In this document: one piece after another, positions 11,916-57,047 of the stretch
How positions within the stretch are numbered: the stretch's first letter is position 1
Layout of the letters: each line of letters opens with the position of its first letter
Source of the DNA: a virus
IMG/VR virus record: IMGVR_UViG_3300024264_000023
Span: 7,758-71,757 of that record
Length of the DNA stretch: 64,000 nt
Strand: one strand, 5' to 3'
Program-made: the position numbers and the translations under genes
Notes under the pieces: model-generated
Seen by the model: the letters and a program-made list of their open reading frames with translations, nothing else
Database searches by the model: none
Told to the model about the DNA's origin: nothing

Positions 11916-12149
11916 TTATCCTGAGTGGGTCCAACCACCTCGTTTATAAGATTGCAATTTTTCAGTTCCATCAGCTTTTGATACTACTCTTTTAGCGTCT
12001 CCACCTTTAGTCATCTTTTGCTCCATTGAACTAAGCATAATATTATCTAATGCAGATTCTCCGCCATTAGCCATTCTACATAATAGTTTTGATTTCTGTC
12101 TTGTTACTTTTTGAGGATTAAGTCCTCCACCTTTCTTTTTATATTTCAT
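11916..12149 (-). CDS. Small basic protein with four xxGG motifs
   Basis: Start reassigned to ATG 12149 (ATGA overlap); KKKGG, MANGG, MTKGG, YKRGG. Confidence 0.65.
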   Translation of the reverse strand: MKYKKKGGGLNPQKVTRQKSKLLCRMANGGESALDNIMLSSMEQKMTKGGDAKRVVSKADGTEKLQSYKRGGWTHSG

Positions 12150-31000: not shown

Positions 31001-34000
31001 TAATAATGGTTTTGTCTTGACCAATAGTCTTAGCAGTTGCTAATGTATAAACTCCATTAGGTTGTTTAATAACATACTGATATCTTTCAGTATAACCTAA
31101 AGTGTTAGGACCTAGCATTTTACTCCACAAGCCATTTTGTAAACCTTCCTTAGCTTCTTTTTCTAATACTTTAAGTTCATCATCTATTAGATTGCTTATT
31201 ACTTCTGGTTCACCAACGGATTCTCCATTCTTATCTCTAGTAATATCATAAATAAGAATACCACCTTTTCCATCTGAAGAAAGACCTGCTTTATAAAAGT
31301 CACTTAATACTGTTAATGGGTTGTCTGTATTATAATCAGGGTAACCATCTTCTCTTACAATTGAAAAACCATTCTCCTTCAAACTTTCAAAAGTAATTTC
31401 AGTTATACCTGAAGCGTATTGTTTATTTAAGAAGTTTACTAAAACATCTTTTCTAGTTGTAGAATCAATTGCTTTTGCAAGCTCTTGTTCAATTGTTGTT
31501 TTAGATGTATCTACATTAAATATATTTTTAGCCAGATCTGTAGACATTGTAGAAGGTGTGAATTCATTTACACCCACTTTATATATATAAGAACTATTTG
31601 CAATGTTACCTATAATGCCATTATTCTTATCACTAATAGGTTGCAACCCTACGGCTTGTAATTTTTGGTTAACTTCAAGAAGAGTAAGCTCATCTTTAAT
31701 TCTTATCTGTATATTATAAGGTTCCCCTTTTGTAAGTATGTATTTATTTGGTTGAGCTACACCACCATAGCTAAATTGTGTTGCTGCTTTATTAGGATTA
31801 GGTTTTACATCAATTACTAAATTATTATAAACATTATCAGTTAGGTTGTTTATAATCCAGCTTAAACGTTTTTCAGCACTTTCCTTTGATTCACCTGCGT
31901 TTTCTCTTACATAAATATTAGCAATGTTATCTGCTGTTATCTTAGCAGTACCATCAGGAACTTTATCAACAATAAGTTTTTCATCATAGTAACGCTCACT
32001 AAAATCTAATTCAGACTCTGTTATTGCTTTTTGTTTTCTGTCAGCATAAGGTTTACCATAATCTTCTGGAGTAACTAACTGAATGTTATCTCCTAAAGGT
32101 CTATTTACTGCAACTCTAAATTCTTCTCCTGTAACTTTATCATATACAAATTGACCTCTTATAAGTGTAAGGCCATCAAACTTAAACGTAGAACCATCTG
32201 AATATTCTTCTTCTAGTATAGTAAACTGATCTAAAGCTGCTCTAGCATTGTTGTAAACACCTTGACCAGATATTGCATCTAATTGTACTGCTGATAAATC
32301 TGATCCATTGTTGTTTATTATTTTATATAATTTTTGATCTTCATCAGCTACATCTATTGATATAACTCTGAAATTAACTCCATCACCACCCTTAATGGCT
32401 TTTAAATTACTTTTCTTATTGATATTCCTGTTTGTAAAAATATCATAAGATAAATCTAGCTGTTTTAATATATCTTCTATAATAGGATTTTCAATAGCTT
32501 CTCTACTATCTAGATACTCTTGGAAACCTTTTTCTTCATCTATATCTCCTGCAGATGGTATTCTTGACCTTTCAACTAAATTGCCATATTCTTCAACTGT
32601 AGTTGAATAACCTTTTGCCCATACTCTCTTTATAGCAATAAAAGCTTTTTTAATTTTAAGAGCCTCGTTTGTTGCTGACCATTGTGAAAAATCTAATGGG
32701 TCTGAGGACTTGTCATTAGCTCTGTATTTTAGATACTGCTGTTTAAGTATTTCATTTAAGATGTTTGAATCAACTTGTTCATCTACCTCAACATCTATTC
32801 CAGCTTGTTGTAGTGTTTCTTCAATATCTAATATTTCTGCATTTGCCACAGCTTCATCAGATACTTCACTCTTTCTTTCTTGTTGAACTTTTACACCAAT
32901 GTAATTTTTAATTATTGCTACTGCTTTTGCTAATGACTCAGCATCTTTTATAACATTTGGATTTAAACGTCTGCCGTTTTGTATAAGCTTACCTTCATTT
33001 ACTCCTTGAAGTAAATCCTCTAAACTTATTTCATCTTGTAAAAATTCTCTTGCAAAGCTTTCTTCCATTAGAATATCTACTTCAGCTAATCCATTTAATA
33101 ATTTAGTTTTTTCAACACTATCTATAAATGCTTCAGTCTGTCTTTTATATATTGTCTTTCTATTTTTATATATATACTCAAGATATTCCGTGGCTCTTTC
33201 TTCTAATTGCTCTTGGACTTTTGGATTAGTTAAAAGGTCAACTGATTTACTATATGCAGAAGCATCTTCTTGTAAGGCTACATGATCAGTAATTAAAGTT
33301 AAAGCTTCTTTTATCTTACCGTAGTCTACAAAATCACTAGACTTGTCTGCTAATGCTTCAATATAGTTTTTAAATGCTGTATCTAAACCAGATGTTTTTA
33401 CTTTGTTTCTAGCAAAGTAACCTTTCTTTGTTAAGTTTTTAGGATCAGTAAATATCTTAAGATACTTTTCTAATGCTTTCTTTTTCTTTTGTTTTTTTGA
33501 TTTTAATTTATTCCCTTCTGTAGTATCCTCATATGCGTCTATCTCTGTTTCTAAAGTTTTGATCTCTTGTTCTATTGTATCTTTAGTGTATAGTAATCTT
33601 ATATCAGTTGCTCCTTGATTGGCAATAAGTGGTTCTGTTTCTAGTCTATTTTCTATTTCAGACTGTCTTATTGCTGCATTTTTAAAAGACTCATTAGTAA
33701 ACATATAAAGCAATTTTGTTTGCTCATATGCTTGAAGTTTAAAAGACTCTTTAATAAACTCCTCAGTACCTGGATCAAACTGTTTAGGATCATATTTAGT
33801 TGGAAAAATACCACCTAGATTATCAGTAACAGTTTTTCCAAAAGAATCTATTCTTTCTAATTGAGTTGATATTTTATTTCTTAATGATTTAGCACTTCTA
33901 CCGCTTCCTTTAAATGCATCAACTAACTCTTTATCATTTAGTTTATTTAAATTAACAAGATTGTCTTTTAAAAATACAATAGATCCTGTATCAAATGCTT

Positions 34001-39533: not shown

Positions 39534-42383
39534 TTATATCCCCATCTTACCTGTATAGAAAGGGTTTGCAAAACGTTTCATGCTACCACCTTTCTTACCA
39601 ACTGTTGTATTTGGTACTGTAACTGAAGGAATATTAAAATCATTATTATCTTCTTCAGATGAAGGATTTCTTCTTTCTGTTTTTTTACCTGTTAAAGGTG
39701 TGCCATCTAAGAAATATTGATTCATTTTCATCCTCTCATCTACTGTAGCATTGGGATAAAGTTCAGATGTTTTTTTATCAATCTCTATCAGCCTATCTTG
39801 TCTTATCTGCCAATCCTCACGGTCATCCTTATTTACTGCAAAAGGTTTATCTGCTTTTTTAACTTGCATACCACCAATGCTTGGATCTATTTCCATGTAG
39901 TCTTTAAGCATATTTAAATTATATGTATTTGCTCTGTTTGTAATAGCATCATTATATAATTTATTAGATTCCTTTTTATCCCAGTTTTCAAAATCAACAA
40001 ATCTTTGCAATGCTCTTACACTGCCATCATACTCTGCATCTTGTTGTTTAGCATTAAAAACTCCTGTTCTTAAATTAAGATCAGCTTGCGTTCTTGCAGC
40101 ATTATTCATAATGCCTACATTATTAGTATTAGTACCAGCAATTGCTTTTACTGCTTCTTCTGCACCTTTACCAAATGCATTTGTACCAGCCACACTACCT
40201 TTACCATATCCTCTAAGGTTTTTCATATATTGACCAGTATTTGCATTTATTGCATTTACTTTCGCAGTCCAATCATCAAGAACATAGTTTATTCTTTCTT
40301 GTGGTAGTTTAGTCACATTAGGCATAAACAACGGATTCTCTAATGAGTTTTGTGTTGCTATATTATTTAGGTCTTGCCACCACCAATCAGGCATTGGTTG
40401 TTTTTCTGTTATTATGTCTCCACTACTTGCTGGTGTTCTTTCATCTTCAACACTAGCATTTAATATATTTGGTTTCTGTACACGTACATATGTTCTACCT
40501 TTATTAAAAGTATCAAAACCTAATTTGCCATCTACACATGTTCCTGGTCTATCTCCACTACATGGGAATAATATTCTAGGTTTACTTTTTGCATCTTTTC
40601 CAAATATCTCATAATGGTTTTTATTTTCTATTTCTTGCATTAAAGTCTGTGCCTGAGTCCAATGTGCTTTATATTTTCTAGCTTGATCATTTACAGGTTT
40701 ACCATTCTTCCATAAACCTGACTTCATTTGATAATTAAATTCAGGCATCATAGTTTTTAGATCATCACCATAACGTAAATTAAAATCAGCTTCGGCTTCA
40801 GGAGTTGTAAAGTCACCACCAAAAGAATTAGACTCTTCTCCCATCCAACCTTGAGACATAGGTCTATCCTGATTGGAATACATTCCTTTTCTTATTCTAA
40901 CATTATTATCATTTGATCCTTCATATACAGAATTTAAAGATGCATCTTCATCACTAATAACACTTACACTACCTGTTCCTTTTGTTTCTAGTTGTTTCTG
41001 TTCATTCTGAACAAAATTTTCAAACTTGTTAGCAGGTAAAACTTCTATAGCTTCATAGTTTGTAACACCTTGTGTTTCATCTCTAGTGGCAACAATTTTA
41101 TAACCATTATTTATAGCATCTTCAAACTCTTGCCATTGAGGATGTGTTTTTGGTAAAGGGTTTTCATCAATAGCTTTTGCTGTTGAAGTAGTAACACCAG
41201 TACCTGAATCATCTATAGCACCATCTTCAACATCAGTTTTAGCTTCTGTATCTGGTTGAACTGTTGGCTGAACTGTTTCTTGCTCTTCAAATTCTATATC
41301 TTCAGTTCTATATAATTCTGGAATATTACCTGTTCCCTTAACGGTCATTGCTAATTGCATAGCAGCTGATTTACTTAGAGGAGGGGTACCATCATCAAAT
41401 ACCCAAACCTTACCATCAAAAGTAGGATCTTTAACACCTTTAGGCCATTCTTGACCTTTACGCTTAGCATATTCAGAAGCTTTTTCCCCACCTTTTTGAA
41501 ACTCTGCAGCTGGAGCTTGACCCATTTCTTCTGGTGTTGGTTGGATCTGACTATTAGGATCTGACATCTGTGGATCAACAACTTCTTGTTGCTGTGGTTG
41601 TCCATCTATGTTTTCCATCATAGCTTGCATCTGCAACATTTTTTGCTGTTGCTCTGGTGGTAGTGATGCTAATAATTCTAACTCTTGTTTTTGTCTTGTT
41701 GATTCTTCTACTGTAGCGGCAAACTCAATTGGGTCAATACCTTTTTCTACTAAGTATGGATATGATGCTAAAGGCACTCCATCTTCAAAATTCTTTTTGA
41801 CTTCTTGACCAAAGGCTAGCTTTGACAAGTTACTCATATTTTTCTTAAGCATTAATTCAGCACTTGTAGTTGATATAATATCAGCATACTGATCATTAAT
41901 AACTCCGTAAAAAGGATTGAGTTGATATCTTTTAGATACTTGTGCTGGTGTTATTTTTTTTCTGCTTTCTATACCAAACTCAGCAAGCTCATTTCTGTCC
42001 ATTTTTAATCCTGCAGTATCAGAATAAATAAAAGACTGCTCAGGCAAATACATTGGTACACCTCCGCTTGAGTGTCTTGGTCCAGTAATACTGTATAAAC
42101 CAAATTGACCATCACCACTTAAATCTGTTAGTACAGTCTCCCCACCTTCAGCTTCAATGTTTGCTTCATCCCTAGGTACACTAGATAAACTATATCTAAC
42201 TGAATCATCTAAATCATTGTTAAAGTTTGTTTGTCCATAGTATTCTTGTGGTGTTGTAATTAAACCATAGTCTGCTTGATCGCCAGTTACCATTCCACCA
42301 TCTCTCTTTAAAGCTTTTTTCTTTACTTTGCCATCAACTATATGGAAGCCTTTAGGTAATTTGTTTATTCTAACTTTTGCCAT
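39534..42383 (-). CDS. Virion cargo/ejection protein with xxGG motifs
   Basis: NIEAEGGETV...GPRHSSGGVP..SFIYSD domain; KRDGG, FQKGG, KKGG. Confidence 0.65.
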   Translation of the reverse strand: MAKVRINKLPKGFHIVDGKVKKKALKRDGGMVTGDQADYGLITTPQEYYGQTNFNNDLDDSVRYSLSSVPRDEANIEAEGGETVLTDLSGDGQFGLYSITGPRHSSGGVPMYLPEQSFIYSDTAGLKMDRNELAEFGIESRKKITPAQVSKRYQLNPFYGVINDQYADIISTTSAELMLKKNMSNLSKLAFGQEVKKNFEDGVPLASYPYLVEKGIDPIEFAATVEESTRQKQELELLASLPPEQQQKMLQMQAMMENIDGQPQQQEVVDPQMSDPNSQIQPTPEEMGQAPAAEFQKGGEKASEYAKRKGQEWPKGVKDPTFDGKVWVFDDGTPPLSKSAAMQLAMTVKGTGNIPELYRTEDIEFEEQETVQPTVQPDTEAKTDVEDGAIDDSGTGVTTSTAKAIDENPLPKTHPQWQEFEDAINNGYKIVATRDETQGVTNYEAIEVLPANKFENFVQNEQKQLETKGTGSVSVISDEDASLNSVYEGSNDNNVRIRKGMYSNQDRPMSQGWMGEESNSFGGDFTTPEAEADFNLRYGDDLKTMMPEFNYQMKSGLWKNGKPVNDQARKYKAHWTQAQTLMQEIENKNHYEIFGKDAKSKPRILFPCSGDRPGTCVDGKLGFDTFNKGRTYVRVQKPNILNASVEDERTPASSGDIITEKQPMPDWWWQDLNNIATQNSLENPLFMPNVTKLPQERINYVLDDWTAKVNAINANTGQYMKNLRGYGKGSVAGTNAFGKGAEEAVKAIAGTNTNNVGIMNNAARTQADLNLRTGVFNAKQQDAEYDGSVRALQRFVDFENWDKKESNKLYNDAITNRANTYNLNMLKDYMEIDPSIGGMQVKKADKPFAVNKDDREDWQIRQDRLIEIDKKTSELYPNATVDERMKMNQYFLDGTPLTGKKTERRNPSSEEDNNDFNIPSVTVPNTTVGKKGGSMKRFANPFYTGKMGI

Positions 42384-42385
42384 AA

Positions 42386-45223
42386 TTATAATATTTCTAT
42401 GTCAGCACCTGCTGCTATTAGTGCAGCTAGTGTATCATTATCAACTTCTATTTCCCCACCACCTTGCATTTCATCTTTATGAAGGTAACCTAATTTTTTC
42501 ATTCTTTCATGATCAGCTGGTTCATTAGCTTTATATCCTTTACCTGATTCTGGATCAAACATCATGTGTACTTTAAACTCACCGCCCTTTTTTGCAGTTC
42601 CGGTTGCTCCACCAAACTGTGTAGGAGACCCTTGAAAGTTCATATAATAACCAGTTGTTCTTTCGGCTTCTCCTTGTAAACGTCCATCATTTAAACCATA
42701 ATAACCTTCACTCATAGGATCAGACATCTTAGTATCATAAGCAAAATCAGCACCACCCATCAACTCAAGCTTATCATATTGTCTTTTAAAATCACGCTCT
42801 GCTATCCTTCTATTAATAAAACCAGCTCCTTTAACAGCAAAACTTGACATTGCTGTAGCAGCATTGTATAATGGACTGTCTGCAATAGCATCTAATGTCC
42901 CACTTAAAGGATTTGACACACTAGCTTTTGGTAAAGTTATATCATTAAATTTATCATCTGCAGTTCTAACAGGTGGTTGAGCAGGTTGTTGAGCAGGTTG
43001 TGTTGAAGCATTACTTGATTTTCTTGAAGGTGTAGTATTCATTAAATCCTCCATATAGTTTGTTTGACCAGAATTTTTCATCATATCCTGTAGACTATCT
43101 GTATAAGGATTAAAGTCTGATCCACCCATATCATACTCAGCTCCATCTTCACCATACATCCAGTCAGGAAGATTGTATTGTGCTTTTGGTAAAGACTGCT
43201 CACCACCTCTAGCTTTTTTTGCTGCAGCTCTATATAGGTCTTGCATAGTAGCAATTTCTTCAGGTGTTTTACCAACTGTTGTTTGACCTAGCTCTCTATT
43301 GTATTCCTCAAACGTTTGACCATTAATCATTTTGTTTACAGTAGTACCTAAAATACCTGCTTTTTCTGTATTAGAATTTGCAACATTTTTATCTGTTTCT
43401 GTTTGCCATTCATTAAATTGAGTTTGTGCCCAATCTTTAATTTTCATTTGATTCTCTGGTTCAAATACACCTTCTGTATTTACATCGTACTTATAATAAG
43501 ATGGTAGCTTATTAGACCATTCTTCTTGTCTATCATTATATCCTGAAAATGCACTTTTTGCATCTGCAAACATACTTACACCTGTTTGTATTGTATCTAA
43601 AAATATATTTGTTTTAGGTGGTGGCATTAAAGGAGCTAAACCTAAAGTAGGATCAACACCACTGTAATACTCAACAGCTCTATTAATATTCTTATCTAAA
43701 TATTTATTATCAATATCTTTTTCATCAGGTAGATAAACACCATTTACATATTGATTTTCTCCACCAACTGCAAAATTTCTAGGTTCTCCGCCTGTTGGGA
43801 AATATTCAGAATTGATACCTGAATTGTTTAGCATATCTATAATACCTTTTCTTTTATCTGCTTGATTCAAATAATCTACATCTATCATATTAGATTTTAC
43901 ATCTGTAGGTATATCTTTTCTTTTTAAGAATTCATCAAGAAGACTACTTCTACCTTGTTCATTTCCTAAAAGATCTTCTGTCAAATTCCCTCTTCTGCTT
44001 TCTATTAATCTTTCAATGACATCTGTTGGTATGTCATCTCTATCTATCATATGTTTTATGTCAAGATCTTCAAATTCAGCAATCTCATCAAAGTAATCTT
44101 GTCTTTTCATGTTATCAAGAAACTCACGTGCTTCTGATTTTGCTGCTGCTGATTCAGCTGATTCTGCTGCTCTTGCTGCTTTATCTTGTTTAAATAAATC
44201 AAGAAAGTCCTCTATCTCTTTTCTCTCAACAGCATCCATATCTATATCTACATCATCCAAACTTTGCTTCATTGCATCAAGCATGTTGAAGTCATCAGGT
44301 AGTTCTTTTCCTGCAGACTTAAATTGATTTACTACATCTTCAGTTTTATTAATAAGACCAGGTAGAATTTTTTTACCACCTTTTTTAGCACCTTTCTGTA
44401 ATAAATTTTTTACAACACCTGCACCAAAATATGTAGTAGGATCTAATAGCATATCTGTTGCCATTGCTCCCCAAAAATTATCTACACCTAATGATTTAGA
44501 TACACCCTCTTGAGACGGGTCATCATCTAATATAGTAGTGTTACGTATATCTGGTATAATATTACCCCAATCAAATGTACCATCTCCTTTGTCAAAAACT
44601 CCTTGTACACCTTCTCTTATAAAGTTAGCAGGTATACCTAATATCTGTAATGCATCATCAGCCATATATAAAGGATTGATTTGATACAACGCATTATCTG
44701 TTAATTTTTTTAAAAATGATCTATTATCTGCTTTTACAGTAACTTCATCTAGTTCTTGCATTTCAATGTCACCATCTTTATTTTGCCAGTAATCATCAAT
44801 TGTTTCTGTACCATACTGTGCTGTTGGCATCATCATCTGCTCTTCAGGAGATTCTTGCTGATTTTGAGTTTGTAAACTTTCATTCCTTGCAAGTAATTGA
44901 GGATTGTTGGTTACTTGCTCAGGCTGTGAAGGTTGATTAGATTCTTCAATGGATTCAAATAAAGCTATTATTTGTTCTTCTTTCATTCCTGCAACCATCA
45001 ATGCTTGCGCAATCATCTGAGAATCAACTTGATTTTCTAGCAGACCTGAAATAACATCTTTAGGATCTTGACCTTCTTGAACTGATTGACTTATGACTTT
45101 AGTTATTTCCATAACCTTTGGATCAACCTGTGGTTGCTGCGTTTGCTGCTGCATCCCAGGTTGCTCAGGTATCATCTGTCCTCCTTGTTGTTTTAAACTT
45201 TTTTTGTTTACTTTCAAACCCAT
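42386..45223 (-). CDS. Virion cargo protein, modular, with xxGG motifs
   Basis: KQQGG, AQYG, FAVGG, KARGG, AKKGG, MQGGG; Gln-rich N-terminus. Confidence 0.65.
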   Translation of the reverse strand: MGLKVNKKSLKQQGGQMIPEQPGMQQQTQQPQVDPKVMEITKVISQSVQEGQDPKDVISGLLENQVDSQMIAQALMVAGMKEEQIIALFESIEESNQPSQPEQVTNNPQLLARNESLQTQNQQESPEEQMMMPTAQYGTETIDDYWQNKDGDIEMQELDEVTVKADNRSFLKKLTDNALYQINPLYMADDALQILGIPANFIREGVQGVFDKGDGTFDWGNIIPDIRNTTILDDDPSQEGVSKSLGVDNFWGAMATDMLLDPTTYFGAGVVKNLLQKGAKKGGKKILPGLINKTEDVVNQFKSAGKELPDDFNMLDAMKQSLDDVDIDMDAVERKEIEDFLDLFKQDKAARAAESAESAAAKSEAREFLDNMKRQDYFDEIAEFEDLDIKHMIDRDDIPTDVIERLIESRRGNLTEDLLGNEQGRSSLLDEFLKRKDIPTDVKSNMIDVDYLNQADKRKGIIDMLNNSGINSEYFPTGGEPRNFAVGGENQYVNGVYLPDEKDIDNKYLDKNINRAVEYYSGVDPTLGLAPLMPPPKTNIFLDTIQTGVSMFADAKSAFSGYNDRQEEWSNKLPSYYKYDVNTEGVFEPENQMKIKDWAQTQFNEWQTETDKNVANSNTEKAGILGTTVNKMINGQTFEEYNRELGQTTVGKTPEEIATMQDLYRAAAKKARGGEQSLPKAQYNLPDWMYGEDGAEYDMGGSDFNPYTDSLQDMMKNSGQTNYMEDLMNTTPSRKSSNASTQPAQQPAQPPVRTADDKFNDITLPKASVSNPLSGTLDAIADSPLYNAATAMSSFAVKGAGFINRRIAERDFKRQYDKLELMGGADFAYDTKMSDPMSEGYYGLNDGRLQGEAERTTGYYMNFQGSPTQFGGATGTAKKGGEFKVHMMFDPESGKGYKANEPADHERMKKLGYLHKDEMQGGGEIEVDNDTLAALIAAGADIEIL

Positions 45224-45226
45224 AAT

Positions 45227-45252
45227 ATTATATTATTAATATACAAATAATT
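45227..45252 (-). promoter_or_regulatory. Candidate phage late promoter
   Basis: AATTATTTGTATATTAATAATATA just before ATG 45223. Confidence 0.5.
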
Positions 45253-45277
45253 ACTTAGAATCACTAATTTTAAAGGT

Positions 45278-48200
45278 TTAAGAACGCTTAGAAATCTCAG
45301 TCATTATATAATTTGCAGGAGTCATACCTAATGCTTTAGCCTCTGCATAATTGATTCTATTTAATTTATCATAATTTTTTTTATCTTCATTTGATCCAAC
45401 AAAACCACCATTTACATATGTCTTATATCTACTATATGGATTACTCTCACCACCTGTTTTTAGTTTTGGTTTAATAAATGCATTATAGTTTCCCATAAAT
45501 CTTTCTTTATGATCAGCATTTGTTTTGTTATAAAATTTCATGTAATAGTCATACATTGCATTTGGATCTTGTAAGCTAGGTAAACTCTCAGGAGATCTAG
45601 CATATTGCATTCTAGCAGTAGCCATTCCCGCTAATTCATCTCCTGCTTTTAATACGTTGTTCATATTTGATGGATCTAAGCCCATTGAACTTAACCAATC
45701 AAACATCTTTTTTTGTTGAGCTGTATATCTATTATTTTCTCCTCTAGGATCAAACAAATCATTATAAGCTGCATCATCTATGGACATTGGACCTCTTGTA
45801 TAATTTCTACCATATGCACCAGAATTTCCTCCATATGAATTTTCCATAGCAGCAGTCATTAACAACAATGCTTCTAAATTTGAATCATTATCTGAATTAG
45901 CAACTACCGTGCTTAATGCAGTATTTAATTTTTCTCTTCTTTGTTTAGACTCATCATCAATATCAAAATATGGATCATATCCGGTTGGTCCCCCTTTTTG
46001 TTTTATAGGCAACTGACCACTTTCTTGTAACTCCTTAACAGTATACGCTCCACCTATTACTGGTGCTGCCATATATGTTTTATTTAAAATATCTTTTATT
46101 GCTTTTCTAACATTACTGTTTTCTAAATTTGCAGTTCTTGGGGCATTGGGCATTAGATACTGACCTGGTTTTAAAAATTGTTCTGCATCTAAACTTGAGA
46201 ATAAATGCTGGATATCATAATTTGCACCTGTACCTCTAAAATCTTTTCCTGCTTCCTTTGACCAATTTGCTATAGCATCTGTTAGTTTTGCAACTTGTTC
46301 ATCTGTTACATTATCCCCTGATTTTAATCCTGCATTTTTTTCTAACCAGTTAAGTGCTTTTCTAAACCTTACTTGTTGCTCCCATGGTCTACTTAAATAT
46401 TCTACATCTAATGCTGGATTATTATCAACAAGTCTTAATTTTGGGTGTCTATATAGATCACTTCCTTGTTGACCTACATTACTAAACATATGTTCTATTT
46501 CATGCTCTAGTACTCCTAATACATTTTCTTTAGTAAGGTGTGGCTTTCTTGGGTCAATAGTAATTTTACCTCTAGTATATAATCCACCAGCAGTACCATC
46601 TAGTTTATCAAAAGAAAGAGTAGAATTTTCAAACTCTTTTATATAATCATCAATATAACCTGTTATTTCATCTTTGCTACGTCCAGTAGCTTCCATATTG
46701 TTTTTTATAAACTTATCAGAAAGTAATCTTTTTCTAGTTGCCTTAGCTATGTCTGAAATTTCTTGTTGTGTAGGTATAAGATGATCATACTCAACTACAT
46801 CAAATTCACCATCTACAACTTTCATAAATTGTTTTTCTTCTATACTTGGTAAATTTTTAAATTCAAAGTCATCAACGCTTTTAAAAAAATTTTTTACTGT
46901 TGGTATAAATTCATCAGCTTTCTTTAGTATGCCTTTGATTATAGCTTTTCCACGTTGAGCTTGTGGTAAATCACCACCATGTTTCAATTTACTTTTTAGT
47001 ATTTGTTCAGACATATCCCATCCTTGTTCTGCTGCTATTCTATCTAAGTTACCAGCTATGTCTCTAAATGATTGACTATCATACCAATTTTTAAATCCAC
47101 TATCTTTAATAAACCAATTTTCAACTTGTCCATGTCCTGGAAAATCTAATATAGTTGCATGACCTGCATAGGGTTGCCAAAGACCTTCTGTACCTTTACC
47201 TGCTAAGTCAGTAGATTTGTAAAACAGTTGACTCTTACCATTTGGTAATGGGACATTAACAATAGATCTACCACCTTGATTACCTAAATACTGTACGTTC
47301 TCACCTACTAAATCTTCTATCTTATATCCCATATCATCAGCATACTTTCCTTGTGCTTTAAGCATATCTAAAGCATTTTGGACAGTACCATCATCCATCT
47401 TTATAGAACCATAATGTGTAGGAGATTCTAACTTTCTAATAGGAAGCATTTCATAAAGACCTTTCTTACTAGTGTTACTAACAGCTTTAACTACATTATC
47501 TGAATTTTTTGCTACATTATCTATTTTTCCAAAAACACTTGGTGCCCATTCTTTTGCTTTTTTTAATAATGCTGTTACTATACTTTTACCTTTTTGAGCA
47601 GTTGGTAATTCTTTTCCATATCTTGCATTTAATACATCAAAGCTTTTTTCCGGAGTTTTACTGTCTGATATAGTATTAAACATTTCTAGTATCTGATCAT
47701 CCGTATAAATTTCCTGTAGTTGTTTATACTGTCCACTTTTTTTCATTATCTCAATCATCTCAGGAGTTACCTTTGAATCAAATATACTAGGTAAGTTTTT
47801 GTCTATGTTTCTTTCACTACTTCTACCAAAGTCTTCATCCTCTTCATAAAAATATCTTGTAGCATTTATTCTTGATCTTGTTTCTGTATCTCTATTTAAG
47901 TATCTGGCACGGTTAATTCTTTCTTGAATAACTTCCTTATCATTAGGTGTTAATCCTTCAGACTTTAATAATTCATTAAGTTCTTTTTCATCTTCCTTTA
48001 AACGTTTTATTCCTTGTTTACCATATTTTTTAATTAGTCTACGGTCAGATAAAGGTATATTACTTGCCTTAAAATAACCCTTGTTATCAGGATTACCATC
48101 ATCAGTAAAATGTGATAATTCATGAACAAGAACACTATCGTAACCATTACCTATTACATACTCTTCCATTGCTGAAGGGTTCATTGTTACTTGTCCATTA

Positions 48201-49672
48201 ATATACTGTCCCAGAAATCCATCAACTTCTTTATCAACTATATTTACATCATCAAAATTGCTTCTTGCAAGCTTAACTTTATTTTTAAATTCCTCTGAAC
48301 TAGAACTAGCATTTAACATTTGATTATGCATTGGTGAATTTGCCCAGTTAGTCATGAATTCAATTTGCTTTGTTGGAGTAGAAGTGCTTCCAGCATCTTG
48401 GAATGATGGGAGGTATTTTCCTAATTCCATTACATCTTGAGTTGTTGGTAAATATTCTTTTAATTTTTTGTATAAATTTGAGGGAATATCAGTAACACTT
48501 TTAATATCACCATATTTAATGTTTAAGGCATCTATTGGGTTAAGAAAATTTTCCATTACTTTTTTAGATAGACTAGTCTCATCTTTAGGATTAAATACTC
48601 CCACAACGCTTGGTTTACCCTTTTCTCCATCACTCGCTAATCCTCTAACTTTAGAGTAAAAAGTATTTTTTTCTGGAGTAGAAGAAAAATCATAAGAGTC
48701 ATATATAGTTATGTCTCCTGTATTGGGATCTTGCTCATAACTAACTCTACCAAACGTTGTAGCTGCTGCTAGCTCTGGTGATAGGAGACTGCCTGCAAGC
48801 ATATCTATAGAAGACATATTAAGACTGTTAAGATCTTTTTCAATTTCAGGACCATAATCTATATATTGTGTACCTCCTTTTGTTTGCCCTGTTCTTTTAA
48901 TTGCATTTAAAACACTTCTTTTAAGTTGCTCATTTGCATGATAAGTTGAATCTTCAAAACTATATTTATCATAACCTGTTAATTTATTAAAAATAAGCTG
49001 ACTTGCATTTTGTGGCAAAGGTGTCACTGCTCTTACAAGATTAGGTGGACTAACCAAACTTGCTAATGGCATCAATGTTTGGGCTGGACTATTATAGCTT
49101 ATATTAGATGCAACACCACCACGTTGTTTTTCTTTTAATACATCTGTTCCATCTTTATAATTTTCTGCAAACCATTGGGCTATCTCATCAGTAGGAAACT
49201 TAATTCCTTGGGATCTACCTTTTTTTCTATCAAACATTAAATTGCCATCATCTCCTTCAACAACTAAAGGGTAAACCATACTGTCTCCAGACTCCATAAA
49301 ATGTGTTGAAGGATCTGTTTGTCCTTCTAAATAAAACTCTGGATTTTTTTCATAAAGTCTTTGTACCCAACGTTTATCCATATTAGCATTAAATGTAGAA
49401 TCAATATATTTTTTATTTAACTCTACACCTTTTTGAGCCATAGGAAACTCATCAACATAATCTGCATTTTTAAAATAGTGTTCACTACCAGGCATCATCA
49501 TTGTTCCCGGACCAACATTAGGTTGAGCCCACACTGGATATTCTACATCTTGCATAGTAATGTGATTACCTTCAATGCGTGTATTTTTTCCTGGATGATT
49601 CCATTGTCCTTTTGGATCAACAATTATTTCATTTGGTCCACCTGGTAATCCTATGCTTTTATTTTTTCTCAT
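45278..49672 (-). CDS. Multi-domain cargo polyprotein (two HExxH zincin-like modules, lysozyme-like module)
   Basis: VHELSH and EHEIEH motifs; C-terminal TAAMENSYG..GPMSID..ARMQY..P..YYMKFYN; modules separated by Q/K-x-GG motifs. Confidence 0.7.
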   Translation of the reverse strand: MRKNKSIGLPGGPNEIIVDPKGQWNHPGKNTRIEGNHITMQDVEYPVWAQPNVGPGTMMMPGSEHYFKNADYVDEFPMAQKGVELNKKYIDSTFNANMDKRWVQRLYEKNPEFYLEGQTDPSTHFMESGDSMVYPLVVEGDDGNLMFDRKKGRSQGIKFPTDEIAQWFAENYKDGTDVLKEKQRGGVASNISYNSPAQTLMPLASLVSPPNLVRAVTPLPQNASQLIFNKLTGYDKYSFEDSTYHANEQLKRSVLNAIKRTGQTKGGTQYIDYGPEIEKDLNSLNMSSIDMLAGSLLSPELAAATTFGRVSYEQDPNTGDITIYDSYDFSSTPEKNTFYSKVRGLASDGEKGKPSVVGVFNPKDETSLSKKVMENFLNPIDALNIKYGDIKSVTDIPSNLYKKLKEYLPTTQDVMELGKYLPSFQDAGSTSTPTKQIEFMTNWANSPMHNQMLNASSSSEEFKNKVKLARSNFDDVNIVDKEVDGFLGQYINGQVTMNPSAMEEYVIGNGYDSVLVHELSHFTDDGNPDNKGYFKASNIPLSDRRLIKKYGKQGIKRLKEDEKELNELLKSEGLTPNDKEVIQERINRARYLNRDTETRSRINATRYFYEEDEDFGRSSERNIDKNLPSIFDSKVTPEMIEIMKKSGQYKQLQEIYTDDQILEMFNTISDSKTPEKSFDVLNARYGKELPTAQKGKSIVTALLKKAKEWAPSVFGKIDNVAKNSDNVVKAVSNTSKKGLYEMLPIRKLESPTHYGSIKMDDGTVQNALDMLKAQGKYADDMGYKIEDLVGENVQYLGNQGGRSIVNVPLPNGKSQLFYKSTDLAGKGTEGLWQPYAGHATILDFPGHGQVENWFIKDSGFKNWYDSQSFRDIAGNLDRIAAEQGWDMSEQILKSKLKHGGDLPQAQRGKAIIKGILKKADEFIPTVKNFFKSVDDFEFKNLPSIEEKQFMKVVDGEFDVVEYDHLIPTQQEISDIAKATRKRLLSDKFIKNNMEATGRSKDEITGYIDDYIKEFENSTLSFDKLDGTAGGLYTRGKITIDPRKPHLTKENVLGVLEHEIEHMFSNVGQQGSDLYRHPKLRLVDNNPALDVEYLSRPWEQQVRFRKALNWLEKNAGLKSGDNVTDEQVAKLTDAIANWSKEAGKDFRGTGANYDIQHLFSSLDAEQFLKPGQYLMPNAPRTANLENSNVRKAIKDILNKTYMAAPVIGGAYTVKELQESGQLPIKQKGGPTGYDPYFDIDDESKQRREKLNTALSTVVANSDNDSNLEALLLMTAAMENSYGGNSGAYGRNYTRGPMSIDDAAYNDLFDPRGENNRYTAQQKKMFDWLSSMGLDPSNMNNVLKAGDELAGMATARMQYARSPESLPSLQDPNAMYDYYMKFYNKTNADHKERFMGNYNAFIKPKLKTGGESNPYSRYKTYVNGGFVGSNEDKKNYDKLNRINYAEAKALGMTPANYIMTEISKRS

Positions 49673-52600
49673 TATCTTTTTGATAGTAATAATTTAGTAT
49701 TGTCTAATCTCAATAGCATTTTTCTATTCCCTGATTCTTGTCTTCTTAATAAAACATGATTAGAATAATGCCTAAACTTTTTATGTTGAGTAGGACTCTT
49801 AAAGTAATTTAAATTAGTTTGATTTAAAGGTCTAATATATCCATTACATTGTGTATCAAATACAGATTGTTCTGAGTTAGTAAATTCACCTCTATCATTT
49901 GTAATATCATAAAACTGATTTATTCTAAACTTGTGTTCTACTTTACTAGAAAGAACAGTTATATCATTAGGACTAACTATTGGATATGCATTTTCTGCCC
50001 ATGGATCATTAAAGGGTTGCATTTCTATATTCAATAATCCTGATACCTGCTCTGTATTATAAATAATTGCTTTATCAAAATTAAATAAAAGATCTTCCCA
50101 TTTGTCCCCTCCACACATATTGTATTCTGGTTCTCCTTTATAAACAAATGTTTCCAACTGATATTCTATACTTCTAATAGTATTTACTGACTGACCTGTA
50201 TTTGATATCAACTCTATTTCCCACGGGAAACTTTCACCATAGTAATTAGCAAATAAATCACACCTTACGTTATGTCTCCAGAATGAACCAACTTGGTAAT
50301 TAGCTTGTACAAAGTCTGCATAATAATAATTACATAAAGGTGGTGTTGGGTCAACCCAAGTTGGATCACCTATTAAACCTAGTTCAGGAAAAGTATCAGG
50401 GCAACTGCCTAGTGAAGTTGTTGTAGTACCTGTTGGCCCCGGAGGACAGTCAGGACATACAACCTGTCTACAGATAGGTGGATTTACATCAGTACATGTT
50501 CCTGTAGGATCTGTATAAAATCCGTTAGTAGCATTTGGATATACCAGTGTATAGCCTGCCGGACAATCACAACTAAATGGAATAGTACAAACTTGACCTG
50601 CTATTTGTTGTGCTGTAGCCTGTAATGATGCAGGATTACTTGCATTCATTATAAATTGATTAGGTCCGGGTGTTTGTGTGGTAGCATTATAGTATGCATT
50701 AGCTGGACCCGCACCAGCACCAACTGTTATTTGATCAATAATAGTGGCATTACCTGGACCATTTGCATTAGGCCCTACAAAGACAGACATTAATTCTTGA
50801 TTGACTGGACCCCCTGCTCCAGGTATTACATTTGGACTTTGTAAAGCATTAAAACTTTGTGGAGTTAATGTAGCGTTACCTGAAGTAATTGTATTACCAT
50901 CTGTCACTACAATTAAAACTTGTCTAAAGAAAGGGTCAGCACTTCTTGCTGGATAGTTAGCAGCATAAGCTGATCCGGCTTTATTATTAAGCTGTGCTAA
51001 TCCATTATTTCTTGCAAGTTGTGCATTGGTCTGCTGCTGTATACCATTTGTACCTGACCAGTTATTTTGGAACCAAGTTCTTGCTTGAGCTCCAGTAACA
51101 GCTCCTAACATAGACTGCCCTGTCCCTGTTGGATTACCTTGAGCACTATTAGTAGCCCAAGCTAAAAAACCTATTTGCATAGTGTTTGCAGTTAATGCTG
51201 CTTGTATAGAAGGATCATTTATAAAAGCTACTAACCAAGTCAATTCTGCATCTGCTAAACTGTTTGTCCCAGGATTTGGATTACCTGTACTACCAGATGC
51301 ATCTATAGCAATCACAATATCTAATAAACAATTTTGTGGACCACCGGTAACAGTTGCAGGTATATCATCTACTGTTACTGTTTGTGGTTCAGTTATATTT
51401 ATAATATCCTCACACAACCCAGTTGTTGAATTAAAGGTATAACCTGGAGGACATTGTGGTACATCAGTTGTTATAGTTTTTGTTGTAAAGAAATGATTTA
51501 TACTTGGCAATGCAAATTCTGGATGCCAATCATGAAATGAAATCCAAGCTTTTGCTTTTGGATCATAGCTTATAGTCCATGAACAATCATCAAAATATAT
51601 TGGATCCCCTATCTCAACAGCAACTACATTACCACCTAAAGTAATATCAATAGGTGTAGTTAATCTATCTGTAAATGTTGCTCTTACTACGTACTGAGAT
51701 TTCATTGAATAGTCTTTTTTCATAAAATAGACTATATCATCATTTGGATCATACATGACTTGACAACCAACACCAACTACTGGATTGTCTATCCACTTTG
51801 TTGTTTCTGCCTCTGGAAATTGTTTTAAAAATTTAGATGGTAAATATTTATTAAACCACCATTTCATCCCCATGTTTGATATGGCTACCAAGCCACTACC
51901 CGGAGTATATTGAAATATTTTACCTTGAGCTTGTGATATAAAAAATAAACCTGCTGCTGTATTTATAACACCACGTTGATTTTCTAATGATCCATACTCA
52001 TTTGATAAATCACTATTTACTATATTTTGTAAAGCTTGTTTAAACAATCCACCATCTCCTATTGTTATTTTAGTACCGGCATCTGTTTTTAAACTATCTA
52101 CACCCTGAAATAATTGTGGTGATTGATAAGGGAAAAACATTAATGCTCCGGTCTTACTGAAAGGTTTTATAACAGATACTTTATTTTTAAAGTCCTTATA
52201 ATTAGCAAATAGATACTGTCTCCAGTAATCTCTTCTATCTTCTTCTTCAGCACGTAAGGAATATATTAATCTCTTAGGATAATTGACATAACAATTTTCT
52301 GCAACGTATGGGTCGTAGTCTTTTGTTTGCAGCTCTGCAAACGTACTGTTTTGGCTAATAAATTTAGATGGGCTTAAAGACTCATCATACTTATAAAAGT
52401 TATCAAATTTTTCTATTTCAGCATGAAACAAATCATCTAAATCATTGTAATCATACTTGTCATAAAATCTTCTTTCTTTTGGTTCTTCCCAATCTCTATA
52501 TGGTAAGTTAATTTCTGTTTCAACATAAAAGTCATTTACCCCGTTTATGTGACTATACATATATGCACGGTTCATAGCAAATGCACTATTTAAACCATCA

Positions 52601-55600
52601 GAAGTAAAAAGTGATAGTAAGTTCCATCCACAAGTATCACCTCTATCTAAGTAATATAATTCATTTGGTAAAGTCTCATCAATATCATTACCACCAAACA
52701 ATTCATTAAATCCAAAAGAACTTATTGTAGTGGCCATACCAGCCATATCAAACTTTCTACTGTTAAGCCAAAACCTTGGAAAGGGTACATTGTACCTTAA
52801 GTAATAATCATATGGGTATCCATCATACTGACCAATTAAAAAGTCAGTAAAGATTGGCATAATAGATTTTTCGGTGTAGTGAGAAATAAATACATCACCA
52901 CTAAATAAAGCTTTACTTGTATATTTAAAATTAGCTGGATCTGATTGATCTACTTTTTCTACACAACCTCTTTGCTGTATTTGTTTTATACCATCAAGCT
53001 GCCCATATTGATTATCCATATTAAACTTTAATGCACCATACAATGCAGATATAGGTTTTTTAAACGGACCTTCTGGGTTTTTCAAATTGCTCTGCCAATT
53101 TGGTGTTGATGCAGAACCATTACTATTAAAGAATCCACCTAAAGCAAATCTAGATTTATCTTCTACACCATAGTTTGAAGATATATTATCTTTAGTTGAA
53201 ATTGCTACAGTAGTAGGTCTAAATAAATTATTTATTTTATATTTATTTTGATCAAATGTTTGGAATGAAGAGCCTATATAATTAGCTGCTTCATTTAATG
53301 TTCTAAATGTTATGTTTAAAGGATGGGCATTAAAATCATTATAGAAACCATATGAATTATATTTTAAAACATGTTCCTGAAAAGAATTTAGGTTATATAA
53401 TAAATCTATTATTTCTTGACCTCCAACTGCAATATTTTTTTGGAGTAATGCAAAACCAAAAGCTTTTTTAAATAAATTTCCCAGGTTTGATTCTGAAGTA
53501 TCTAATGTTACTCCTTCTTGAGAACCACCACCCATAAGACCACCATTAGCAGTAGAACCAGTATCTGACATGTTATCTATAGCCAACTGATTTAGTCTTT
53601 CTTTTGTACTGTCTCCAAACCCGGTTAAATCTGCTACATCTTGAATACCACCAGTAAACAAATCCATAAGACCACCTAACCAGCCTCCAAGGCCACCACC
53701 TTGACTATTCACATAGCTATTAATAGCATCATTAGCTAATGTATGTGCACCACCACCTTTTACACTATTATCACCATCACCACCCTTATGACTGCTAATA
53801 TTACCTGTTGTGCTAGCAGTTGCAACACCTCCTGGAGATGCAGCCGTTGCAAAGTCATTCCAAGTTCCACCACCTCCACCTCTTTCCTCAATCTTCCATT
53901 CAGGGTATGCATTGTTTATACCCTGAACTGGCAATGCTTTAGTGTCTGGTGTACCATTAATATTTCTTAAAGCATAACCTACACCTATTAATGCACTAAT
54001 TATAGCACTAATATTTCTTAGTAATTTAAACTGAGGGTGCTTTTCTGATGGTTTAAAGTAACCTGATGATTCTCCGGTTATCTTACCATAGAATACTGTT
54101 TCATATGCATTTAAATATGGCTTAGTAAACATTAAGTCTGGAGAATGAAATGTAAAAACATCTTCTCTAAAACCTGATAGAGGTGGAAAATCACTAATTG
54201 CAGAACCAGAAAATGGACCACCATTATCACAACCTTTTGTTTTTCTAACTGTTGTATGAAACACATCAGGTCTTAAATCATTAAAAGGGTAATTAGGATA
54301 TAAACCTTGAGCATCACCAATTAAATTTTCAGTATCTGGCAAATCATACTCACGCATGTTTTTGAACATTCCTTTAGCAAGTATAGTTCTATTCCCTAAT
54401 CTAGATCCTCTGAGTAATTCATAACCTACTATATTTGTAATAGGACTACCATCATTATATACAGGTCTTTTTATATTTGAAAATTCTACACCTAATATGT
54501 ATATACCTGTATCTGTGCCATCTGTTAAACCTAGTACAGGGTTAATCATTTCATTAGGCATTTTATGGTGCCTAATAAATTCACCGCATAAGTCTGCACC
54601 TGGATCAAATTCATTTGACCAAGTATGTGAGCTTGAATTCCATATTTCAGGTTGCTTATCAGGATACTTTTCTGTAGATTGCCAATAAGCCATTTCTCCC
54701 CTAGCTATTATTGTTGATCCATCTTCTTGTTGTTCACTAACTAAAGCACCTACGGTACTTGTGTTATAAACTTTAAATAAAGGATCTCCTGCAGGATCTA
54801 ATGTATTAGGACCAGATATTATATCTCTTTCATTTTTAATATCTCCATTTGGTAATGTATAATCCTTAGATGCTCTACCTGGTATATGATATGACGAAGA
54901 TCTTTCACCTGTGTTATATATCCATCTAATAAAAAATGCATACTGCTCATCTCGCATGTATCCTAATTTATTACCTGAGTTTATATAGTAATCATTAGTT
55001 ACCTCATTAATAACCCAATTGGTTTTTATATTATTTGCAATGGGTTGGTAATTAAAATCAAATTGTTCAGTTGGACCTTGTCTTATAAGATAATCATTAA
55101 CAACGTACATTGCCTCTGATTTTTCATATGCTGGAGACTGTCTGAATATTTCTTGTATAGGTATAGATATAAGTGAATCATCTATATAGTCTATATTTAT
55201 ATGTTTTGACTCAGTGCTATAGTTACCTACAAGTTTTGTAAATATTTGCCCTTGTTGTCTTATGAGCAATACTAAATCAAAATAAAAGTAATCTTTATCT
55301 AGACCATCAATTTCTAAATCAAGTGATCCATTACTACCTCTATGTGACCATATAGTCTGAATGTTTGATATTCCTATGTAGTCTGATATAACTTGATCAT
55401 TCTCAGTATAAGCTATATAAGCTTGATAAGCTCCGTTTATAATAGTACCTCCATCAGTTGCTTTAGTAAGTTTAAGACAAGGTGTATCTACTAGAGGGTG
55501 TAATCTTATTTTTTCACAATCTAAAAAAGAAGTATCCTCGTAAATAATACACGGATCACCAGGAGCTGATACTATATCTTGTATGTAAGGAACATCATCT

Positions 55601-56073: not shown

Positions 56074-56093
56074 AACTAGTTAAATATATTTTA

Positions 56094-57047
56094 TTAATTA
56101 TATCCAGTTGTAGTAGCAGATGTACCATTACTGTTTATTACTGCTGGTCCAGATACTTGAGGATTTGCAGGAGCATAACTTAAAAACATATTATAATAAT
56201 TATGATATTGAGCTCTTCTATTCATTGTCCATACTTTTCTCATCTCAGCAAAATCTGGAGTGTTAACAAAACCAAGTGCATTATTTCTTGCTGCTCTAAG
56301 CTTACCCTCAACAAAACCTATTTGTTGTGAAACGTTTTCTCCTTGCCATAGCATATTTTCTAAAATCCTTTGTTTTACTGCATACTCATAATACTCATTA
56401 CAGTAAGGGTGATCTAAAACAAGTAAATCCCCATTAGCGTCTTCCATTGCTCCTTGATAACTTATATAAACCTTACCTGTCTTAAATGTAGTTATCATAT
56501 AACCGTCTTTTATTTCAGCAACATCTAAAGCTTGTGCTCCTAATGCAGGGCAAAAACATGTTGGATCATTTACATTTTGTATTCTAAGCTGAGTCCAACT
56601 ACTAAATTGTCTGTATTGAGATGGGCCAACTCGTTGAACAAGTTGATACTCATTTTTATCATTGCATGTTTTAACAACACATACATCTTTGCAATTTTCA
56701 CCATCTTCACAAGGTGCTGCATCAGTTGGTGCTGGAACGTAGGGTACATCATTAAATGTTTCAACGTGTGTACCTGAAGGCATGCTATTATTAATTACAT
56801 AAGAGCCACATCTAAATGCATAATTTACAAATGCAAAATCAGATGGTAGTTGAGCTTTACCATGTTCAATATCTAAAACAACTTCTTTCGTTCTATGTAT
56901 TCTTAAACCTAAATCATAGTTTACTCTAGTTGCAACTTTAATTAATTGTTGTGGTTCAATCATTCCCTCTAATGCATAATTAGAAAAGTCAATGGAGACA
57001 TCTTCCATTAATTGACTAAACGTTCTGTATTTATTTGATACACCCAT
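56094..57047 (-). CDS. Tail ring/tubular protein
   Basis: KAQLPSDF; GYMITTFKTGKVYISY..D.NG.LLV.D; position upstream of the stabilisation protein. Confidence 0.6.
   Translation of the reverse strand: MGVSNKYRTFSQLMEDVSIDFSNYALEGMIEPQQLIKVATRVNYDLGLRIHRTKEVVLDIEHGKAQLPSDFAFVNYAFRCGSYVINNSMPSGTHVETFNDVPYVPAPTDAAPCEDGENCKDVCVVKTCNDKNEYQLVQRVGPSQYRQFSSWTQLRIQNVNDPTCFCPALGAQALDVAEIKDGYMITTFKTGKVYISYQGAMEDANGDLLVLDHPYCNEYYEYAVKQRILENMLWQGENVSQQIGFVEGKLRAARNNALGFVNTPDFAEMRKVWTMNRRAQYHNYYNMFLSYAPANPQVSGPAVINSNGTSATTTGYN

Follow-up and report, generated by a model that had tools for sequence, protein, structure and literature searches.

The DNA analysed here is a 64,000-nucleotide stretch (the window) of the viral record IMGVR_UViG_3300024264_000023, a single contig of 71,757 bases with about 32% G+C, and our main finding is a short recurrent Gly-Gly motif that borders exchangeable modules in two large proteins, P0001 and P0002, encoded next to each other. 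The motif is enriched in these proteins, sits at their module boundaries, marks the points at which relatives exchange modules, keeps its glycines where the surrounding sequence has diverged, and is restricted to cargo proteins and small open reading frames (ORFs). This observation is solid, with cleavage and docking as nearly equal candidate mechanisms behind it. Polyvalent proteins and crassvirus cargo proteins are already known; what appears to be new is a junction element combined with constant handles. Three adjacent genes are concerned (coordinates are those of the window):

45278-49672, minus strand: P0001, 1464 amino acids (aa), at the position of crAss001 C1; mosaic polyvalent protein, putative cargo
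42386-45223, minus strand: P0002, 945 aa, at the position of crAss001 C2; mosaic, with a mostly low-confidence model
39534-42383, minus strand: P0003, 949 aa; conserved, non-mosaic protein of the virion block with a variable acidic middle

An initial annotation, made from the letters of the DNA, had listed motif strings in these three proteins, each of which is indeed present, and had proposed a plug-and-play system in which domains flanked by the motif are loaded into the head, cut free for injection, or both. The strict pattern [AKFM][QK].GG occurs 2, 4 and 1 times in P0001, P0002 and P0003, respectively, with about 0.2 matches expected per protein (500 shuffles of each), and once in the 31 other ORFs among the 34 of at least 100 aa that were examined; in the same set, [KRQ][KRQHTD]GG occurs 4, 3 and 3 times in the three proteins and nowhere else. 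A refined pattern, [AKYFMLR][QK].GG or [LIVMF][PS].[AM]Q.[GA] (300 shuffles, 44 ORFs), gives 13 matches in the 3,358 aa of P0001-P0003 versus 1.04 expected, and 2 in the 19,524 aa of the remaining 39 ORFs versus 3.16 expected; this pattern was tuned on homologues and is partly post hoc, and the rest of the genome makes a fairer comparison. When three-letter gapped patterns in P0001-P0003 are counted without bias, LP..Q ranks first (8 versus 0.62) and GGE also emerges (8 versus 1.43), a result that is only borderline once some 48,000 possible patterns are corrected for. The enrichment over shuffled sequence is thus confirmed as real. The rarity of the motif outside the cargo proteins, which had been judged by eye, holds for the remaining 39 ORFs and fails for two small ORFs, described below, in which the motif is densest.

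The two motif types are one element, which in fuller form approximates [LK]-P-K-[KMF]-[QK]-x-G-G-[ES]-[LVI]-P-K-A-Q-x-G, with about 9 residues to the unit and frequent doubling, as in LKHGGDLPQAQRG of P0001, ARGGEQSLPKAQYN of P0002 and KNGGWLDKYQMGGSLPKAQYG of relatives. The first motif glycine is encoded by GGT 20 times, GGA and GGC twice each and GGG once, and the second by GGT 12, GGA 10 and GGG 3 times, so synonymous codons at the Gly-Gly vary like those in the rest of the genes. Since codon choice follows general usage, the constraint lies on the protein and not on the DNA; DNA-level conservation as the cause of the motif is unsupported. A search of a viral contig collection with a strict 29-nucleotide degenerate pattern of the doubled motif returned no more than 13 loci, on contigs of 35-122 kb and one of them (L017) on the L001 contig, and was of little further use.

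P0001 is polyvalent, combining two HExxH zincin-like domains and a lytic domain, and hence unrelated enzyme domains, in one chain. Constant sequence at the N terminus (about residues 1-82, the N handle) and at the C terminus (a tail of about residues 1409-1464) encloses a variable middle. Among 82 homologues, 46 carry the N handle, 60 the C tail and 43 both; these 43 have between 0 and 97% of the middle in common with P0001, and coverage of P0001 reaches at least 90% in 2 of the 82. Motif sites and domains alternate along the chain as follows, where ends of high-scoring segment pairs (HSPs) mark breakpoints and pLDDT is the predicted local distance difference test score of the structural model:

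49427-49447, minus strand: FPMAQKG, residues 76-82, closes the N-terminal handle; 25 HSP ends at 82-88
49115-49129, minus strand: KQRGG, residues 182-186; 12 HSP ends exactly at 186
48389-48403, minus strand: FQDAG, residues 424-428, directly precedes zincin-like domain 1; pLDDT below 50
47666-48397, minus strand: zincin-like domain 1, about residues 426-669, with HELSH; VIA-align Z 6.3-7.0
47588-47608, minus strand: LPTAQKG, residues 689-695; a Lys-rich amphipathic helix comes next; 6 HSP ends at 688
46949-46987, minus strand: the doubled motif LKHGGDLPQAQRG, residues 896-908; pLDDT below 50
46463-46792, minus strand: zincin-like domain 2, about residues 961-1070, with HEIEH; VIA-align Z 5.9 to selecase (model residues 543-652)
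45989-46003, minus strand: KQKGG, residues 1224-1228, between zincin-like domain 2 and the lytic domain; pLDDT below 50
45458-45982, minus strand: lysozyme-like/lytic-transglycosylase domain, about residues 1231-1405; VIA-align Z 9.1-8.2 (model residues 813-987)
45449-45463, minus strand: LKTGG, residues 1404-1408, precedes the constant C-terminal tail; pLDDT below 50

Module breakpoints, taken as internal HSP ends (221 in P0001 and 304 in P0002), cluster at these sites. In P0001, 57% of the ends fall within 12 aa of eight motif sites that together span 12.5% of the protein, compared with a mean of 13% for random sites (none of 5000 random sets was as high); within 5 aa the proportion is 41%, compared with 11% (1 of 3000 sets). 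The corresponding figures for P0002 within 5 aa are 42% and 11%, with none of 3000 sets as high. Endpoints of related homologues are non-independent, and when distinct P0001 endpoints alone are counted the comparison is 43% versus 12.5%. Individual joints can be read directly from the alignments: several P0001 homologues are more than 90% identical to it up to QRGG (residue 186) and then continue into an unrelated module, which follows QRGG directly in P0006, P0014, P0019, P0020 and P0023, and in several homologues cassettes have been swapped exactly between QRGG and LPKAQ. Beside FQDAG, 20 HSPs start at residues 418-422, and at KQKGG seven start at residue 1224 and five end at 1220. Relatives thus exchange modules at or beside the motif, as the initial annotation had anticipated.

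The position of the motif in homologues agrees with these breakpoints. None of 102 matches in 18 homologues falls inside a Pfam stretch (such stretches make up 8.9% of residues), and many lie 3-20 residues from a domain edge. In distant representatives, 21 of 139 matches lie within 40 aa of a protein end versus 9.3 expected, and some ORFs of distant representatives start or stop inside the element. Together with the ends of P0001 and P0002, these data bear out the suggestion that the motif lies at domain boundaries and near termini. In A1, the family alignment of P0001 with a mean column identity of 23%, conservation of at least 90% is seen at G695, G899, G900 and G1408; in such alignments the motif glycines belong to the small number of invariant columns and are conserved far beyond the surrounding sequence. 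An AlphaFold model of residues 419-1464 (mean pLDDT 56) places all six modelled motif sites, in five linker segments, in segments with pLDDT below 50, in line with the expectation of disordered linkers, although 43% of all modelled residues score this low; the ranges of the VIA-align fold matches end beside motif sites.

The modules themselves are diverse. Zincin-like domain 1 (model residues 8-251) matches the M13-type peptidases Zmp1, PepO and neprilysin by VIA-align, and in homologues it shows a weak Peptidase_M91 match below cut-off; for domain 2, phmmer returns proabylysin at a non-significant E of 0.67. Both HELSH and HEIEH are conserved in the A1 consensus. The HEIEH module is found in 65 representative clusters, mostly embedded in proteins of 600-2500 aa; short matches are few (102-281 aa) and may be fragments. 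The lytic domain aligns by VIA-align to a muramidase, MltF and phiKZ gp144, matches PHROG 3108, and corresponds to Pfam SLT in homologues. Across P0001 homologues, Pfam modules comprise ART-PolyVal, SLT, LysM, YkuD, SET, GH24 lysozyme and PG_binding_1. P0001-P0003 themselves have no Pfam match at E up to 0.01, Foldseek with the P0001 model found nothing in the PDB at E up to 0.001, and neither zincin region had a significant phmmer match among PDB sequences.

P0002 has a leader ending in KQQGG that is conserved across its family, and a constant 22-residue C-terminal tail that starts exactly at GGE, the sequence upstream of it being freely variable. Conservation in the following list refers to the family alignment A2, with a mean column identity of 23%:

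45179-45193, minus strand: KQQGG, residues 11-15, ends the conserved N-terminal leader; Q12, G14 and G15 at least 90% conserved
44810-44830, minus strand: MPTAQYG, residues 132-138; G138 invariant, 75 breakpoints in 120-149
44375-44389, minus strand: AKKGG, residues 279-283, a motif site
43172-43213, minus strand: the doubled motif ARGGEQSLPKAQYN, residues 671-684; G673 invariant, G674 at least 90% conserved
42581-42595, minus strand: AKKGG, residues 877-881; G880 at least 90% conserved
42455-42469, minus strand: MQGGG followed by E, residues 919-924; G922, G923 and E924 invariant
42386-42454, minus strand: C-terminal tail, residues 924-945, near-invariant across the family

A further 41 breakpoints fall in residues 660-689, around ARGGEQSLPKAQYN, and a small folded unit (residues 886-919) lies between AKKGG (877-881) and MQGGG. 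The tail reads E-I-E-V-D-N-D-T-L-A-A-L-I-A-A-G-A-D-I-E-I-L and is a candidate anchoring peptide. The AlphaFold2 model of P0002 (mean pLDDT 42, with 70% of residues below 50) is too poor for a linker test. In locus L003 (14114-16898) the P0002 homologue is split into two ORFs of 443 and 434 aa; considered as a natural break at the motif, this proved to be a frame change within the gene, which could stem from a frameshift, a sequencing error or recoding.

The plug-and-play construction proposed in the initial annotation therefore stands for P0001 and P0002, with their swaps at the motif and constant handles, and does not extend to P0003, which behaves differently. The 575 homologues of P0003 are mostly full length. 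Three motif-like strings occur in it: KRDGG (residues 26-30, 42294-42308), FQKGG (295-299, 41487-41501) and KKGG (930-933, 39585-39596). Its strict-pattern count is not significant (p 0.17), and 4% of its 80 breakpoints lie near motifs, compared with 18% at random sites; these breakpoints reflect the variable acidic middle, not the motifs. G29 and G30 are invariant, yet they lie inside a strongly conserved N-terminal domain full of invariant residues, and the C-terminal KKGG is unconserved. Resemblance to the junction element is limited to the central region around FQKGG.

Nor is the motif limited to three adjacent late proteins. Two small K/G-rich ORFs among the fibre genes carry it at the highest density in the genome, with 5 refined-pattern matches in 138 aa:

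10041-10226, minus strand: small ORF P0327, 61 aa, with GKKGGQ, KQKGGE and AKRGGC
11916-12149, minus strand: small ORF within P0328, 77 aa, with KKKGGG, ANGGE, TKGGD and KRGGW

P0327 is 79% identical in the relative G003, where the frame is open, and the complete relative G006 has similar small ORFs upstream of its fibre genes. As for the head-protease substrates of other phages, the N-terminal leaders of P0002 and of the small ORFs end in the motif.

Enrichment extends to relatives and to some cultured phages. In 56 distant representatives that have nothing but the HEIEH module in common (at most 50% identity), 141 motif matches are found versus 21 expected. In G006, the ORFs with several matches are the three cargo homologues (3, 6 and 3) and a small ORF of 83 aa (2), with one match each in four other ORFs. 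Among cultured phages, the motif is present in positional counterparts of Cellulophaga phage phi4:1, gp041 and gp040, both annotated in the record as virion proteins from tandem mass spectrometry; the counterpart in Leptolyngbya phage Lbo-JY46 has 5 matches versus 0.5 expected, and the tail lysozyme of csAssE-Sib 2 versus 0.19. Flavobacterium phage FPSV-S29 shows no enrichment (1 match versus 0.6 expected), and crAss001 gp44-gp50 hold scattered background matches only and no consensus motif; the motif is therefore not general to crass-like phages.

The source is an uncultured marine crass-like phage, identified as crass-like by a muzzle-like gene and the genes for both tail ring proteins (1 and 2), which lie directly upstream of P0001-P0003 in the direction of transcription (49672-57721). 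A tblastn search with P0001 and P0003 against 50,697 phage records gave zero matches; the phage has no close relative in culture. The record is probably incomplete, for the relatives rated 95-100% complete measure 110-122 kb. The relevant neighbours are:

57047-57721, minus strand: CrAss_Ring_2 (Pfam)
56094-57047, minus strand: CrAss_Ring_1 (Pfam)
49672-56073, minus strand: muzzle-like gene, 2133 aa; virion structural PHROG matches and tblastn matches
22044-36053, minus strand: giant ORF, 4669 aa; contains DFDID (residue 3544) and HEAFH (residue 2054)

By tblastn, the 2133-aa product matches the large structural or muzzle proteins of several phages: phi4:1 and phi17:2 of Cellulophaga, Flavobacterium phages, Lbo-JY46 and csAssE-Sib. 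Downstream of P0001-P0003 follow ORFs of 1136, 4669 and 1915 aa. This order is that of crAss001 gp43-gp47 (rings, muzzle gp44, cargo C1 gp45, cargo C2 gp46, RNA-polymerase block; PMC10172136). P0001 and P0002 thus share the gene position of C1 and C2, right after the ring and muzzle genes, and Pfam crAss_CARG1 is found in one of 25 scanned P0001 homologues (P0074); unlike this agreement in position, P0001-P0003 have no detectable sequence similarity to the crAss001 proteins. An hhalign comparison of the P0003 family with gp45 gave a probability value of 0.14, and an ESM Atlas match of P0003 to crAss_CARG1 (score 0.91) serves as a lead only. Reading P0001-P0003 as virion cargo (ejected) proteins would therefore be a reasonable label resting on synteny.

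A Pfam scan of the giant neighbours gave nothing useful. DFDID and HEAFH of the 4669-aa ORF are both conserved in G006, which also encodes a Crass_capsid major capsid protein, and the ORF is probably a polyprotein in which the crass virion RNA polymerase is fused with its zincin-bearing neighbour. In G006, genes for a PAS histidine kinase and for a response-regulator receiver (L028, 15589-17300) lie on the stretch from the ribonucleotide reductase genes to the giant ORFs; these genes are not at the matching place in the window. Elsewhere in the window, three fibre-like proteins resemble each other by eye at their N termini:

10716-11909, minus strand: fibre-like protein, 397 aa
6719-9445, minus strand: fibre-like protein, 908 aa
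3007-6666, minus strand: fibre-like protein, 1219 aa, with Big_9 and cadherin-like domains

All three start with a similar peptide, M..L.D.L.L....K, which is probably a tail anchor. A 103-aa ORF on the plus strand (2515-2826) carries a dATP/dGTP diphosphohydrolase N-terminal domain (PF18909, E 3e-11) and could hint at nucleotide-pool or base-modification functions.

How the motif might act is best considered next to known systems. Polyvalent proteins, as described in PMC5512222 (Iyer, Burroughs, Anand, de Souza and Aravind, 2017), are large multi-domain phage proteins for which transport alongside the DNA and processing by zincin-like peptidases have been predicted. P0001 may resemble them in its embedded HExxH domains, which are putative zincins, and its homologues carry the family-naming ART-PolyVal as well as SLT, LysM, SET and lysozyme domains; unlike here, that paper contains neither the word "linker" nor "glycine" and has no boundary motif, N- and C-terminal handles or crassvirus cargo position. 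For crass-like phages, fused polyproteins are called "likely cleaved" in the preprint 10.1101/2020.03.07.982082, on the phi14:2 RNA polymerase, which also notes a neighbour with a zincin-like protease domain. In CdiA, the VENN peptide marks off the modules; heterologous modules function when fused at it, it permits recombination of cassettes, and delivery requires precise cleavage at it (PMC9424206). Here too a short conserved peptide borders variable modules, and heterologous modules are joined at it, as in CdiA and other polymorphic toxins; unlike VENN, the phage element has another sequence, belongs to a virion rather than a two-partner secretion system and forms many joints rather than one per protein, and its cleavage is a proposal from sequence. 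The adenovirus protease, according to PMC4246237, cuts (M/I/L)XGG-X with Gln tolerated at P4 and acts on core proteins inside the virion. The phage [QK]-x-G-G-x resembles this site; the adenovirus enzyme differs in being a cysteine protease from a virus of eukaryotes. VENN is the best analogue of the boundary motif and the adenovirus protease a looser one.

The recurrence of a short motif in head-packed proteins also recalls the substrates of T4 gp21, with their capsid-targeting sequences, and of phiKZ-like gp175. The motifs of these head proteases, L/I-x-E and S/A/G-x-E, differ from the phage Gly-Gly element, and the leader consensus of double-glycine (C39) systems is unlike the basic, K/Q-rich context at the phage Gly-Gly. 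To our knowledge, no maturation protease is known for crass-like podoviruses. The literature, in a search that was not exhaustive, yielded no conserved junction element with constant handles for the marine crass-like lineage.

Our best guess, which we hold tentatively, is a VENN-like boundary that doubles as the cleavage site of a virion-borne zincin. P0001-P0003 would encode ejected cargo proteins of the marine crass-like phage, P0001 and P0002 being polyvalent strings of a constant N-terminal handle, exchangeable modules and a constant C-terminal tail. The P0001 modules are probably two zincin-like peptidases and a lytic transglycosylase, where relatives instead carry ADP-ribosyltransferase, LysM, L,D-transpeptidase, SET or lysozyme modules. 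The motif, kept by protein-level selection in non-globular linkers, may act like VENN of CdiA toxins as a common joint for recombining new cassettes, and a protease carried in the virion may cut the string at the motif, in the head or after ejection, which would separate envelope-acting from cytoplasm-acting modules. The cut might be made by one of the zincin-like domains in P0001 or by the HExxH domain that is conserved in the giant polyprotein. A broader proposal would make the motif a dual-purpose code in marine crass-like phages, both a universal joint at which any effector cassette may recombine between the constant handles and the exact point at which a virion-packed zincin divides the ejected string into separate enzymes, with the small ORFs as substrates or regulators; this we consider rather doubtful.

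The search for such a protease produced few candidates: the HELSH and HEIEH domains of P0001, the conserved HExxH of the giant ORF, and a DUF2201 metallopeptidase. The last is encoded in G006 (L027, 10572-13001) as a DUF2201_N putative metallopeptidase with a VWA-like domain, beside an AAA ATPase within the replication module, an arrangement like that annotated for gp77 of crAss001; the record that holds the window begins only after this region and thus lacks it. In a Pfam scan of the 71 ORFs of G006, DUF2201_N and the fibre chaperone S74 were the only protease-related hits. The head protease expected elsewhere in the genome failed to appear, Peptidase_S78 (the HK97 type) being found in none of five relatives, of which four have a completeness of 95% or more, in a search that did not cover S77.

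Several observations weigh against cleavage. No family known to cut after Gly-Gly was found in the five relatives: C48 was found in none, and C5 in none either, although the C5 control was also silent everywhere and uncharacterised modules might conceal a fold of this kind. Motif density is 3.9 per 1000 aa in 62 homologues with HExxH and 3.2 in 20 without, and the P0001 homologue of G006 has no HExxH, which together rule out that the motif requires a zincin in its own chain. The 4669-aa polyprotein, the likeliest processed neighbour, has no strict and one refined match. The zincin assignments are modest, with Z scores of 5.9-7.0 and non-significant sequence matches, and the linker test is weak because 43% of P0001 and 70% of P0002 model residues have pLDDT below 50. 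P0003 is the weak case that does not fit the pattern of P0001 and P0002. The documented crAss001 cargo protein C1 is one chain spanning tail and capsid, with cleavage unmentioned in PMC10172136, and its gene block lacks the motif. Finally, a motif 10-40 residues from the ends of free-standing proteins fits a tag or docking peptide at least equally well.

Nearly equal in our estimation, and placed just second, is a role of the motif as a hinge or docking tag that stays uncut, which takes up the "packaging" half of the initial annotation: modules would flex, be loaded and be held in register like beads on a string by binding one shared partner in the virion, be it the portal, the tail-barrel rings, the capsid interior or DNA, and the chain would be ejected whole. 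Besides the enrichment at the extreme ends of free-standing proteins, its location in low-confidence linkers, at the borders of the conserved leader and tail of P0002, and at high density in small K/G-rich ORFs would suit such a role, as would the Lys-rich amphipathic helix that often follows it (P0001 residues 696-715 and 909-925, and many homologues) and the failure to find a GG-specific protease in relatives. There is also a precedent, since short helices of uncut crAss001 C1 dock on ring and muzzle proteins (PMC10172136). Yet crAss001, the documented docking case, has no motif; conservation at the Q/K, E and LP-K-AQ positions would be superfluous in a plain hinge; and an intact chain does not explain how periplasm-directed and cytoplasm-directed modules could both act from a single polypeptide.

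It is improbable that the motif is a recombination joint alone, kept for the exchange of cassettes between phages without a biochemical role. The clustering of breakpoints, ORFs that begin or end within the element, and exact cassette replacement between two motifs would all be expected of a joint, and VENN is said to permit toxin-cassette recombination (PMC9424206). However, the core measures merely 12-15 nucleotides, its synonymous codons vary as elsewhere in the genes, the glycines are invariant at a mean identity of 23%, where DNA homology is gone, and breakpoints in linkers are expected from functional selection alone. Chance, or the composition of K-, Q- and G-rich low-complexity linkers, is largely refuted by the 13 refined matches against 1.04 expected with 2 in 19,524 aa elsewhere, by the 141 against 21 in 56 distant proteins, and by the invariant motif columns and breakpoint tests, for all that the motif was first defined loosely, P0003 alone gives p 0.17, the best unbiased pattern is borderline after correction and P0002 is mostly low-confidence sequence.

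Few viruses are as abundant as the crass-like phages of Bacteroidota, yet most of the large cargo proteins of these phages lack annotation. The boundary motif lets such proteins be divided into modules and their constant handles be recognised, and a reading by modules reveals which enzymes each phage would inject, be they cell-wall lytic, ADP-ribosylating or methyltransferase. The published idea that embedded zincins process polyvalent proteins and crass polyproteins becomes testable at named residues. Should the motif prove to act as a tag or to be cleaved, the free exchange of cargo repertoires between related phages would have an explanation; and a dual-purpose code, if true, would be a phage counterpart of VENN and a rule for reading, and for re-loading, virion cargo.

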